Part shown: piece after piece, positions 42,795-63,514 of the stretch
Layout of the letters: the number at the start of each line of letters is the position of its first letter
How positions within the stretch are numbered: the first letter of the stretch is position 1
From: Shigella phage ESh19
Sequence record: ON528729
DNA length: 64,000 nucleotides
Strand: one strand, 5' to 3'
The notes under the pieces: generated by a model
Told to the model about the DNA's origin: nothing
The model's database searches: none
The model's input: the letters and a program-made list of their open reading frames with translations, nothing else
Position numbers and translations under genes: made by a program

Positions 42795-42870
42795 TGGAGT
42801 ATCGGAAGGGACTCGAACCCTCATAAACCTGTTTTGCAGACAGGCACATAACCATTTCTGACACCGACAC
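42795..42870 (-). tRNA. tRNA-Cys (GCA)
   Basis: T-arm GAGGG-TTCGAGT-CCCTT, anticodon stem CCTGT/ACAGG loop CTGCAAA, acceptor GTGTCGG/CCGATAC, U73, CCA encoded. Confidence 0.7.
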
Positions 42871-42876
42871 ATAATT

Positions 42877-42969
42877 TGGAGGAAGATACCAGACTTGAAC
42901 TGGTACGCCGATTTCTCGGTTACTGGCAGTTTAGCAAACTGCTCCCTTACCTTTTAGGGTTAATCTTCC
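42877..42969 (-). tRNA. tRNA-Ser (GCT), type II
   Basis: Acceptor GGAAGAT/ATCTTCC perfect, anticodon loop TTGCTAA, long variable arm, T-arm ACCAG-TTCAAGT-CTGGT. Confidence 0.7.
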
Positions 42970-42970
42970 A

Positions 42971-43704
42971 TTATTTGTTCAGAGCTTCTTTCATCTCTGG
43001 AGTTGCAATAGTATCAATCACACCAGTTTTACATGAATCATCAAACCAGCTTGGTAGAACATTTGCAAGGAAACCATTAATATTTGTTTTCAGGTATTCT
43101 GCAATCAGTGCTGCTTCATCTGCAATCATCTGAGTTACTTCATTAGCATATGCAGTAATCTTTGCAATACCCTCATTAATCGCTGTAACGGCCTGTGTAG
43201 CGAGTTCAGAGATTGTATCTAGTCCTTGGTCGATTGCATCTTGCAAATCGCTTAGAACGCTATTTACAGCGTCTATGGAGGTATTAATCAAATCCATCGC
43301 TTTATTACCGTACTCGGTAGCTACGCCCATGATACCACTAAACGGTGTACATCCAACCTGTTCACCTGCTGCTCCCATAACGTTAGAGTAACCCTTAGCT
43401 ACTTGCATACGTTGTGAAAACTCATCTACAGACTTTTGCCCATACTCAGTGAGTGTACTTGTCGTTGAAGTTGTACTTCCAAGGCTTGTTGTGAAGCTTC
43501 CTAATAGGGCTGTTGTCAGTCCAGCAGCAACTAAAATCTGTTGTGTAGCTGGGTCTGTTACAGAACTAATTGAGTTAACTAATGATTGAGAGGCAGCTAC
43601 AGTACCACCAAGAACTGCTGCACCAGTAATAAGAGGGTTTGAGAAACCATTACCGGTTTTAAGGAGATTAAAAATCTCTTTACTTTGTTCTGTCATCTCT
43701 TTCA
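42971..43704 (-). CDS. hypothetical Gly/Ala/Ser/Thr-rich protein (244 aa) inside tRNA island
   Basis: ORF track (start refined to ATG 43704; upstream extension overlaps tRNA-Phe). Confidence 0.45.
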
Positions 43705-43721
43705 TTATGCACCTATAAAGT

Positions 43722-43797
43722 TGGTAGCCCATCGGGATTTGAACCCTGTTCTCATGTTTTTCAGACACGCGCTTTAACCATATAAGCTAATTGAGCT
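43722..43797 (-). tRNA. tRNA-Phe (GAA)
   Basis: Anticodon stem CGTGT/ACATG loop CTGAAAA; T-loop TTCAAAT; acceptor AGCTCAA/ATGGGCT (one mismatch); CCA encoded. Confidence 0.55.
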
Positions 43798-43804
43798 ATT
43801 AAAT

Positions 43805-43881
43805 TGGGGTGACCTACGGGAATCGAACCCGTATAGACCATGTTCACAGCATGGGTCATTATCCATTTATGATAAGGCCAC
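43805..43881 (-). tRNA. tRNA-His (GTG)
   Basis: Anticodon stem CCATG/CATGG loop CTGTGAA, C73, T-arm ACGGG-TTCGATT-CCCGT. Confidence 0.7.
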
Positions 43882-43912
43882 ATTTAAGGACTCTCGTAAG
43901 AATCCTTAGAAG

Positions 43913-43988
43913 TGGCAGCAGTATAAGGATTTGAACCTTAATCTTTCAGCTTCAGAGGCTGGAGCATTCCCAGTTATGCTATACTGCT
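43913..43988 (-). tRNA. tRNA-Gln (CTG)
   Basis: Acceptor AGCAGTA/TACTGCT perfect, D-stem GCAT/ATGC, anticodon loop CTCTGAA, T-arm TAAGG-TTCAAAT-CCTTA. Confidence 0.6.
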
Positions 43989-43994
43989 AATATT

Positions 43995-61835: not shown

Positions 61836-62066
61836 CTACTTTTCTATAAGAATTTCATAATCACCATTCACACTGTCAAAGTAAATACCTTCATCATCTT
61901 CTGATTTATAGTAACATTGGATATCATCTGATGCAGGGTAGTCTTGCCTTGCTATCTGACAGGCAACAATAGCATTATTTTCACTACCTGTAAACTCTTC
62001 TAAACCTTTAAAGTCACATTGTGAACCATTGCAGATAGATAGGATAAGATAGATTGTAGTAAGCAT
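61836..62066 (-). CDS. early secreted protein with signal peptide (76 aa)
   Basis: MLTTIYLILSICNGSQC hydrophobic N-terminus. Confidence 0.5.
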   Translation of the reverse strand: MLTTIYLILSICNGSQCDFKGLEEFTGSENNAIVACQIARQDYPASDDIQCYYKSEDDEGIYFDSVNGDYEILIEK

Positions 62067-62129
62067 CTTTTAAGCCTCTTGTAAGCCCCTGTGCGGGGCT
62101 TTTATAGTGAACTGGTATGATTCTATGAT

Positions 62130-62687
62130 TTATGCTGTTAAGTCGTTTATAGCCGTTTCTACTACGTTGCTTTGCATTGTGTCAAAGATATCACAATATA
62201 CATTGCTCATCTCATCACTACGTTGGACTATTGCCGCAATGTTGCGTAATTCATCCGGTATATAGCCCAAGTTCCTATTATTCAGGTTAGGGACAAAGAA
62301 AGGCGCATACATAGCATTAAATTCAGTTGTGTAAATCTTTTTAATCCATTCTTTATCGAAATATTCTGTAAAGCTTGCTACGTCGCTCATGTTCTCACAG
62401 CTCCAGTCATCTTGTAAATCATCTTCTGGAATATCCAGTTCCAAGATAACAAGTTTTTGTGACTTCATTTGATAGGCTGCTGTAATGCTTGCGCTATCAA
62501 GCGCGTTTCTAATACCTTCATCTGTGATTTGTTCGTCATCCAGATTCTCTACATCATAGAACTTGTTAACAGGGTAGACGTAAAAACATCCATCCATATC
62601 AGAGCAATTCCAGACTCCTGATGGTTTATCACCGCCATTGATAAGGTTTACGAAGTTTTCTTGTGTAGTACCGTGGAAGCATTTCAT
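62130..62687 (-). CDS. putative ADP-ribosyltransferase (H-Y-E / diphtheria-toxin-PARP-like motif), acidic early protein (185 aa)
   Basis: N-terminal FHGTTQENFVNLINGG resembles YHGT of diphtheria toxin and WHGSRTTNFAGILSQG of PARP; candidate Tyr (GCFYVY) and Glu (ILELD) downstream. Confidence 0.4.
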   Translation of the reverse strand: MKCFHGTTQENFVNLINGGDKPSGVWNCSDMDGCFYVYPVNKFYDVENLDDEQITDEGIRNALDSASITAAYQMKSQKLVILELDIPEDDLQDDWSCENMSDVASFTEYFDKEWIKKIYTTEFNAMYAPFFVPNLNNRNLGYIPDELRNIAAIVQRSDEMSNVYCDIFDTMQSNVVETAINDLTA

Positions 62688-62737
62688 TTTTGATTCTCCA
62701 GTTTAGGATTGTTGGTAAAGCTCTTTATCTGGGGCTT

Positions 62738-62766
62738 AAGATACTAGCTTTTAAACCCCATGTAAA
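62738..62766 (-). promoter_or_regulatory. early promoter TTTACA-N17-TATCTT (class B leader with GGGG...CCCC)
   Basis: Minus-strand reading. Confidence 0.5.
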
Positions 62767-62771
62767 GCACT

Positions 62772-63020
62772 TTATTTAGTTTTCTTTGTAAAGATTAGTT
62801 TAACGGCAACAGTTGGTAACTCTTCAATACTTGTGAACAAAGTCACTTTTTGAGTCTTGACATTATAGCCATACTTTGAACCATAAGCTGTAAAACGGTT
62901 TACAATGTAACTGTAAGTTTTTGCAGTGTTATCTGGCATATGATATAAAAACGGCTTGCCAAGGTTATCAAGTTGTGTTAAGAGTCGGCAGGTATCAGGG
63001 ATATTCAGCATATTAAACAT
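62772..63020 (-). CDS. early protein, hypothetical (82 aa)
   Basis: ORF track; cassette upstream. Confidence 0.55.
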   Translation of the reverse strand: MFNMLNIPDTCRLLTQLDNLGKPFLYHMPDNTAKTYSYIVNRFTAYGSKYGYNVKTQKVTLFTSIEELPTVAVKLIFTKKTK

Positions 63021-63078: not shown

Positions 63079-63107
63079 CTCTACTACTATGTTTTTGCAA
63101 TGTCAAT
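63079..63107 (-). promoter_or_regulatory. early promoter TTGACA-N17-TAGAGT with conserved leader
   Basis: Minus-strand reading. Confidence 0.55.
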
Positions 63108-63514
63108 CAAATCTCTGAATAAATCGCATCGCAGATTTCACGGAAAACTTCGACCGGTAAGTTACGCTGTAACCATGTTGCAAAGAAATCAGCAATTGCA
63201 AAGTTTGCATCAAAATCAACACATAGCCACACTTTAACAGCAAATCGAAACATTTTCAAGTCAAGTTCTTTATTCATTACTTTTGACTTTGACAGCATTT
63301 CCTTCATCTCATATTGAGCACCATCAATTATAGCCCCTGCTGCTACATCTTGCAAGGACTCTTTAAGCTGTTTTGTGTCTACTACTACGCCCTGAATTTT
63401 GCCGATGATATTATGCAGTGTTTCGTCTGGCGCTGCTGATGTTACAATGTTGATGCGGTTAATGGTCAAACGTGCTTTCAAAATTGCAACTTCTTTGTGA
63501 TTAACATTAGTCAT
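63107..63514 (-). CDS. early protein, hypothetical (135 aa)
   Basis: ORF track; cassette upstream. Confidence 0.55.
   Translation of the reverse strand: MTNVNHKEVAILKARLTINRINIVTSAAPDETLHNIIGKIQGVVVDTKQLKESLQDVAAGAIIDGAQYEMKEMLSKSKVMNKELDLKMFRFAVKVWLCVDFDANFAIADFFATWLQRNLPVEVFREICDAIYSEI

Follow-up and report, generated by a model that had tools for sequence, protein, structure and literature searches.

A putative stand-alone mono-ADP-ribosyltransferase of Shigella phage ESh19 and its phage family of predicted H-Y-D type

Shigella phage ESh19 (sequence record ON528729) carries, on the minus strand of the 64,000-nucleotide stretch analysed here and referred to as the window, a gene for an acidic protein of 185 residues that is predicted to have the fold of an ADP-ribosyltransferase (ART). 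With moderate confidence, and on the strength of its conserved residues and predicted structure, the gene is proposed to encode an active stand-alone mono-ADP-ribosyltransferase and to represent a family of the ART superfamily that is restricted to phages and had not been annotated before. The family appears to be a new one of H-Y-D type, a judgement in which the p0068-like family of viral ARTs was compared by description only.

The gene and its family

An open reading frame (ORF) for an acidic 185-residue protein had been picked out at this position in a sequence-only reading that left the strand unstated, and homologues across phage records and in a cluster search indicate that it is a real gene. 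The protein begins MKCFHGTTQENFVNLINGG, carries DGCFYVYP over residues 32-39 and VILELD over 80-85, and has a computed net charge of -21 and isoelectric point (pI) of 4.05. The source genome is that of a Mooglevirus (Ounavirinae, Felix-O1-like), with ~96% DNA identity to the Shigella phages Henu11 and Sf14 across the gene region, and in every one of the deposited genomes the homologue is labelled 'hypothetical protein'.

A tblastn search with the protein found homologues in 374 phage records at 29-97% identity, in phages ranging from Felixounavirus and Mooglevirus through Erwinia Kolesnikvirus, Pectobacterium phages and Pseudomonas Pakpunavirus to 136-kb Vibrio phages. A HMMER scan of 1.84 billion representatives at E<=1e-3 gave 264 clusters at the 50% identity level, and members among the 150 listed of these clusters were 84-242 residues long; in outline the family is one of stand-alone proteins 160-242 residues in length. 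Profile searching of a set of 5.8 billion proteins returned just unnamed single-domain proteins, none of them annotated in Pfam, and ten of the longest family members were scanned for fused domains and carried none. Acidity is common to the whole family, the median pI being 4.3 and the median net charge -21, with zero members above pI 7.

The query matched PHROG 3303 ('unknown function') at E=7e-95. Searched alone it gave nothing beyond chance against Pfam, no family in NCBIfam, no model in PADLOC and nothing meaningful among PDB sequences; its matches to UPF0223 and PA28 were at chance level and were dismissed, and a match of one family member to Tad6 (E=0.0055) was likewise taken as chance. 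The Pfam family DUF6912 weakly matched residues 51-140 of member P0056 (E=6.9e-5; 23.5 bits, the cut-off being 27), a span that takes in the helix, strand and Asp-loop region, and two further members also matched it. DUF6912 may be a distant cellular relative. No paper mentioning DUF6912 was found. Literature searches combining Felixounavirus or Pakpunavirus with ARTs, and covering phage ARTs, Tad6 and DUF6912, found no characterised homologue and no paper in which Felixounavirus, Mooglevirus or this gene of Pakpunavirus was tied to ARTs.

Predicted fold

An AlphaFold 2 (AF2) model built from a 136-member alignment had a mean predicted local distance difference test score (pLDDT) of 95.4 and a predicted template modelling score of 0.90, and all five models reached a pLDDT of at least 95.0. 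The model has the split beta-sheet core of the ARTs in minimal form, with five strands and helix alpha1 following the strand that bears the His-Gly-Thr (HGT) motif, and continues into a helical C-terminal extension of ~60 residues. Its predicted elements include strand 2-8 (containing H5), helix 9-16, strand 35-39 (FYVYP, containing Y36), strand 77-85 and strand 115-123.

Structural comparison gave the highest score to Tpt1/KptA (9LD3; 8.0, with 77 residues superposed at 2.0 A), followed by heat-labile enterotoxin (7.4), the Rhs toxin TreX (7.3), pertussis toxin S1 (7.2), CC0527 of DUF952 (7.0), TreTu (6.9), PARP15 (5.8), DarT (5.4-5.6), Arr (5.3) and AcrIF11 (3.9), and essentially all of the top 60 were ART or ART-like folds. 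Foldseek against the BFVD viral models matched two phage proteins, one uncharacterised (E=2.7e-7) and one annotated DarT (E=9e-4), as well as several proteins of Bacillus phage G and one protein annotated as a rifampin ART; Bacillus phage G encodes at least ten ARTs (Iyer et al. 2022, PMC9503650). On the basis of the AF2 model, the structural comparison and these viral matches, the assignment of the ART fold is well supported.

The N-terminal HGT motif

Among 146 family representatives H5 is conserved in 143, G6 in 140 and T7 in 131, and the motif stands in the first strand with a helix directly after it, which is the H-x-[ST] arrangement of the ART superfamily. When members were scanned individually, 25 of the 136 matched Pfam PARP and three matched Tpt1, on beta1-alpha1. 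The PARP matches place member residues ~2-25 on profile positions 50-72, which are the H-G-[ST] strand and helix. Most of the sub-threshold Pfam matches span ~20 residues; the best to PARP, by member P0107 at 19.8 bits, covers profile positions 49-103 and so runs through the Tyr strand. A search of PDB sequences with the family profile gave as its top match the HGT segment LFHGTAEKNFDLILKDG, in Runella Tpt1, and hhalign of the family against Runella Tpt1 set HGT on HGT at E=3.3e-4. In global mode, hhalign comparisons with one or a few sequences of Tpt1 or Arr were uninformative. The DarT model of PADLOC was weakly matched by one member over residues 3-28 only, and no full-length match to DarT models was found.

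Both in Tpt1 and in diphtheria toxin, the adenosine 2'-OH of nicotinamide adenine dinucleotide (NAD+) is hydrogen-bonded by the His and Thr of the HGT motif, and in Clostridium thermocellum Tpt1 the hydrophobic Ile111, ten positions past the His, stacks on the adenine (PMC6333775). The phage family is hydrophobic at position 15, ten past H5, where Ile occurs in 107, Leu in 14 and Met in 11 of the 146 representatives. The His-Gly-Thr opening had already been noticed from the sequence, and the near-invariance of H5, the PARP and Tpt1 matches and the appearance of Tpt1 at the head of the PDB search place it beyond chance. The HGT motif and the conserved Tyr are presumably the NAD+-binding residues of the family. 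Since the matches to PARP, Tpt1 and DarT all fall under curated thresholds, the protein is read from its sequence as belonging to the ART superfamily but lying outside the PARP, diphtheria-toxin and Tpt1 families.

Candidate catalytic residues

The Tyr proposed in the sequence-only reading, within DGCFYVYP, is borne out as Y36, which is kept in 144 of the 146 representatives and stands on the next core strand, where the second signature residue of the superfamily is expected. The Glu proposed there, E83 within VILELD, fared differently: it is Glu in just 83 of the 146 (57%) and lies in the middle of strand 77-85, and it was rejected as the catalytic residue on both counts. Residue 113, at the canonical site before strand 115-123, is variable (Glu in 23, Ser in 23, Asp in 20). 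D94, in contrast, is invariant in all 146, and it is accompanied by S96 (145), C97 (131), N99 (130) and M100 (137). With E83 and residue 113 variable and D94 invariant, the conserved signature appears to be H-Y-D, as in Arr, and not the H-Y-E first suggested. A second loop, between alpha1 and the Tyr strand, is conserved in a family-specific manner, with W26 present in 146, C28 in 104 and S29 in 142 of the representatives.

Arr is classed as H-Y-D and AcrIF11 as H-H-D (PMC8120803). The HGT motif of Arr lies close in space to Y49 and D84, mutagenesis has shown all three to be catalytic, and D84 forms part of the motif DPN[VL] (PMC6092378). A correspondence with Arr was anticipated from the order of secondary-structure elements in the AF2 model. 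Local hhalign of the family against Arr-ms set ...LQDDW on ...IEDDP (E=0.085), and hhalign against an alignment of 122 Arr sequences at a permissive threshold was colinear over 118 columns (E=0.023), placing H5 on H19, Y36 on Y49, D93-D94 on D83-D84 and N99-M100 on N86-V87 of DPN[VL], with a three-residue insert. The Arr profile is shallow because the homologues found for it were just 78-95% identical. From this register we infer that H5, Y36 and D94 are equivalent to H19, Y49 and D84 of Arr.

Proposed function and alternatives

In the mechanism proposed, host RNA polymerase would transcribe the gene soon after infection from the gene's own sigma-70-type promoter, and the ART would act alone, with no conserved partner, antitoxin or hydrolase. 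With its HGT motif the enzyme would grip NAD+ at the adenosine ribose, just as Tpt1 and diphtheria toxin do, and Y36 would line the nicotinamide-ribose pocket. D94 would take the role of Asp84 in Arr and Asp115 in AcrIF11, stabilising the oxocarbenium-like transition state after nicotinamide has departed, and the nucleophile of the acceptor would then attack C1''. A host protein belonging to the transcription, translation or defence machinery would be ADP-ribosylated in this way, in a role analogous to that of T4 ModA/ModB or AcrIF11, and the NAD+ salvage genes of the phage would sustain the co-substrate. Given the uniformly strong acidity of the family, and by analogy with these enzymes, the acceptor is most likely a host protein rather than nucleic acid.

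A number of observations weigh against this proposal. None of the Pfam matches of the query or of family members reaches the gathering cut-offs, and Foldseek of the AF2 model against the PDB returned nothing significant (best E=0.3). The canonical ART position carries no conserved Glu. The Arr alignments are weak (E=0.023-0.085, hhalign probability 0.7-2%), and the proximity of H5, Y36 and D94 to one another is deduced from topology and alignment. The closest structural relatives, Tpt1 and Arr, modify an RNA phosphate and a small-molecule hydroxyl, neither of which is a protein. Finally, 'early' expression is inferred from the promoter consensus and the position of the gene only.

The alternative that survives best, although it is considered unlikely, is an Arr/Tpt1-like enzyme with a non-protein acceptor, whether a metabolite, an antibiotic-like compound or a defence nucleotide messenger, or one that makes a soluble ADP-ribose derivative. 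It stays live because the nearest relatives by structure and sequence, Tpt1 (phosphate), CC0527/DUF952 and Arr (small-molecule hydroxyl), use acceptors of phosphate or small-molecule type, and the Tpt1/Arr branch has been placed in RNA repair, small-molecule modification and the formation of soluble ADP-ribose derivatives (Iyer et al., PMC9503650). The H-Y-D triad and a DPN-like motif appear to be held in common with Arr, and the helical C-terminal extension could cap a small-ligand pocket like helix alpha2 in Arr. Such an enzyme is, however, without a known candidate ligand, and no linked genes of a signal or metabolite pathway were found in the loci examined. A narrower version, a shade less probable again, would derive the family from the Tpt1/Arr branch as a phage offshoot whose acceptor for ADP-ribose is a defence nucleotide messenger or small molecule, with the NAD+ salvage genes supplying the co-substrate; if that were true, it would be the first enzyme of viral origin that uses ADP-ribosylation to create or neutralise a signal.

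It is improbable that the protein is an NAD+ glycohydrolase that hydrolyses NAD+ without transfer and, for example, shuts down host metabolism or an NAD+-dependent defence. NADases exist among ART folds (PMC9503650), the NAD+-binding residues are conserved and the gene needs no partner. Mooglevirus genomes, however, encode a nicotinamide phosphoribosyltransferase (NadV), a phosphoribosyl pyrophosphate (PRPP) synthetase (Prs) and a protein annotated 'NAD synthetase', and Pakpunaviruses carry NARP1 (PMC12846349); judged by sequence similarity, the phage has genes of NAD+ metabolism alongside the predicted NAD+-using enzyme, which argues that its NAD+ has to be preserved. Recognition of an acceptor is further suggested by the C-terminal domain and by the loops that are conserved specifically in this family.

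An inactive ART-fold protein, serving as a sensor or sponge for NAD+ or ADP-ribose or acting on a host protein as its acidic decoy or inhibitor, has a similarly low probability. The canonical catalytic Glu is absent and the extreme acidity is typical of phage protein mimics, but it is precisely the residues with a catalytic role in Arr (H, Y, D, N) that are nearly invariant, and these persist across very divergent phages, down to 22% identity.

Modification of nucleic acid, either of bases as by DarT or of RNA or DNA phosphate ends as by Tpt1, is less probable still. It is favoured by the viral model annotated DarT and by the weak PADLOC match, yet the matches to DarT and Tpt1 in sequence are limited to beta1-alpha1 and no family member is basic. 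With its His at residue 5 the protein has room neither for an N-terminal RNA lobe nor for Tpt1's Arg-His-Arg-Arg tetrad, and the family conserves nothing that corresponds to the Arg cage of Tpt1; acidity, the missing lobe and the missing cage together argue against nucleic-acid substrates. That the protein is not an ART at all, and the fold match an artefact of modelling or searching, is very unlikely: the PDB search was not significant and no curated family threshold was passed, but the five AF2 models are of uniformly high confidence and independent sequence matches align the conserved HGT motif and its helix with the motif that binds NAD+ in PARP, Tpt1 and DarT.

Should the proposed stand-alone mono-ADP-ribosyltransferase be correct, a gene present in hundreds of genomes gains a fold and a testable chemistry, namely a predicted NAD+-dependent transfer of ADP-ribose with H5, Y36 and D94 as the key residues, and becomes a concrete candidate effector of host takeover or of anti-defence. 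Felix-O1-like phages and Pakpunaviruses are widely used in biocontrol and therapy, and their early regions are almost wholly 'hypothetical'.

Promoter, hairpins and neighbouring genes

The features of the gene and its surroundings are collected in Table 1.

Table 1. Positions in the window of the predicted ART gene, its motif codons and adjacent features
Feature	Position	Strand	Remarks
Coding sequence, acidic ART-fold protein, PHROG 3303	62130..62687	-	185 residues; homologues Moogle gp108 (AIW03845.1), Silverhawkium gp115 (QBP33201.1), Henu11 gp47
H5-G6-T7 codons	62667..62675	-	End of strand beta1; predicted contact to NAD+ adenosine-ribose 2'-OH
W26-N-C28-S29 codons	62601..62612	-	Family-specific loop motif between alpha1 and Tyr strand; putative role only
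Y36 codon	62580..62582	-	Strand 35-39 (FYVYP); proposed second triad residue; aligned with Arr Y49
D94-W-S96-C97-E-N99-M100 codons	62388..62408	-	Loop after strand 77-85; proposed catalytic Asp
Ribosome-binding site (RBS) GGAGAA	62694..62699	-	6 nucleotides upstream of ATG; invariant in five phages; annotated RBS in Moogle
Sigma-70-like promoter	62738..62766	-	TTTACA (62766-62761), 17-nucleotide spacer, TATCTT (62743-62738); 9/12 consensus matches; putative function
GC-rich hairpin AAGCCCC-GCACA-GGGGCTT	62083..62101	-	29 nucleotides past stop; no T tract; RBS and ATG of next ORF follow directly
Downstream ORF, 76 residues, PHROG 4640	61836..62066	-	Conserved in Mooglevirus only
Upstream ORF, 82 residues, PHROG 9030	62772-63020	-	Present here, in Silverhawkium, HP1 and Henu11 (by 96% DNA match)

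The positions of the promoter hexamers are retained in five Mooglevirus phages (ESh19, Henu11, Silverhawkium, HP1 and Moogle) with spacers that vary, and in Moogle the promoter reads TTGACA-17-TAAAGT and follows a different upstream gene. The sequence-only reading had set the gene in an array of single-promoter early genes, a context that is upheld by its own conserved sigma-70-like promoter and by the mosaic of small genes in which it stands. Within the promoter spacer, at ~62730-62760 (minus-strand reading) and right after the stop of the 82-residue ORF, is a second hairpin, GGGGTTTA...TAAGCCCC, which is kept in four of the five Mooglevirus phages. Terminator and promoter upstream of the ART gene appear to overlap.

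The GC-rich hairpin downstream of the gene has a stem that is invariant and a loop that is variable across the five phages, and it is a candidate attenuator, stabiliser or processing (RNase) site. As it lacks a T tract and runs straight into the next RBS, the 76-residue ORF may be co-transcribed with the ART gene; the 63-nucleotide gap between the two was scanned and no promoter-like site was found. The 76-residue ORF starts MLTTIYLILSICNGSQC, a hydrophobic N-terminus that resembles a signal or lipoprotein sequence. A homologue of it beside the ART gene was absent from the Erwinia, Pectobacterium, Pseudomonas, Vibrio and metagenomic loci examined. On the other side, Moogle is without the 82-residue ORF, and a homologue of 63107-63514 directly precedes the ART gene there; the presence or absence of this ORF among Mooglevirus genomes points to cassette-like mosaicism of the early region.

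The neighbours of the ART gene are small ORFs of unknown function that differ among lineages, and in an all-against-all comparison of eight loci the ART gene alone was common to Ounavirinae, Pakpunavirus, Vibrio and metagenomic phages. Consistent linkage to a partner gene, be it a macrodomain, ARH, NADAR or Dmd gene, was not found in the loci examined, and from this the gene is taken to be a self-sufficient module and not one half of a toxin-antitoxin pair. Individual metagenomic loci do hold other genes nearby: one has a weak NADAR match and an HD-domain gene (L006; 4892-5677, 7102-7722), and two have SprT-like genes (L008, 3984-4490; L010, 5322-5945). Neither the NADAR/HD genes of the one locus nor the SprT-like genes of the two are conserved across the family, and both were rejected as general partners.

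Elsewhere in the window, a 166-residue ORF at 1875-2375 on the minus strand shares 98% identity with Moogle gp25, which bears the annotation 'NAD synthetase', and a 251-residue ORF at 906-1658 on the same strand is 92% identical to a MazG-like pyrophosphatase; the NadV and PRPP synthetase genes of Moogle fall outside the window. An array of 25 transfer RNA genes occupies 42795-47882 on the minus strand, as expected of Felix-O1-like phages.

Comparison with known ADP-ribosyltransferases

Arr (PF12120; 2HW2, 9IAF) resembles the phage family in its small stand-alone ART core, apparently in its H-Y-D signature, and in an order of elements that the two have in common: the strand with HGT, the strand with the Tyr, a long helix, a strand, an acidic loop, a short strand and the final strand. 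The query nevertheless has no match to PF12120 at E<=10, and Arr is also not among the families matched by the 136 members. Unlike Arr, the phage proteins have a three-residue insert in the Asp loop (D-x-S-C-x-N-M), a loop with an invariant Trp (W-x-C-S), an insert of acidic character behind the Tyr strand and a helical C-terminus of ~60 residues, and they are phage-borne and strongly acidic.

Tpt1/KptA (PF01885; 9LD3, 7KW8, 6E3A) provides the best match in sequence, on FHGTxxxNFxxIlxxG. The Pfam cut-off for Tpt1 is 26 bits, however, and the best member reached 17.2, over residues 4-29 only. An N-terminal winged-helix RNA lobe, the Arg-His-Arg-Arg tetrad, which is required of Tpt1 (PMC6333775, PMC8120803), and a three-Arg phosphate cage are features of Tpt1 that the phage family lacks; the HGT strand of the ESh19 protein begins at residue 2, and in family members it is preceded by a few residues at most. 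The phage family also has Tyr in the region of the second His of Tpt1, and is acidic where Tpt1 is basic.

With PARP and diphtheria toxin (PF00644) the family has in common the H-G-[ST] and helix motif and the Tyr strand, but it has neither a conserved Glu opening the last core strand nor a second Tyr at +10/11. Against the PARP cut-off of 26.7 bits the best member fell short and the query had no match at E<=10. The diphtheria-toxin/PARP assignment of the sequence-only reading is accordingly not sustained, its matches being below cut-off and the conserved catalytic Glu missing.

Among viral enzymes, the phage- and plasmid-borne anti-CRISPR ART AcrIF11 (6KYF) is also a small stand-alone protein, with its His within the first seven residues and D115 replacing the Glu (PMC8120803), and it gives an example of a phage ART that acts against a defence protein; it differs in being H-H-D rather than H-Y-D, and no sequence similarity to it was detected. 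The likeness to T4 Alt, ModA and ModB is one of functional analogy only, in that these phage ARTs have host proteins as their substrates at about the time infection begins (PMC8120803, PMC9503650). They are of the R-S-E class, whereas the phage family has His in beta1 and no conserved STS or ExE, and no sequence relationship or specific structural relationship to them was found.

A survey of viral ARTs found four H-Y-[EDQ] families among the most frequent (Iyer et al. 2022, PMC9503650), and this survey may already include the PHROG 3303 family. Together with AcrIF11 (PMC8120803) it contradicts the expectation that an H-Y-E enzyme would be unusual in a phage. One of the families surveyed, the p0068-like ARTs of H-Y-[EDQ] type, is frequent in phages including those of Escherichia, Shigella and Salmonella and is reported beside a Dmd-domain antitoxin (PMC9503650). 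No match to the Dmd Pfam domain was found in 19 neighbouring ORFs from five lineages (this phage, Felixounavirus, Pakpunavirus, Vibrio and Erwinia phages), and the p0068-like family is set apart from the present one by this description of its neighbours, not by comparison of sequences. Nothing is overturned by a further phage ART, since ARTs are already known in ~30% of myoviruses (PMC9503650), but the viral repertoire would gain an H-Y-D family, and the earlier notion that only R-S-E ARTs are normal in phages is corrected.

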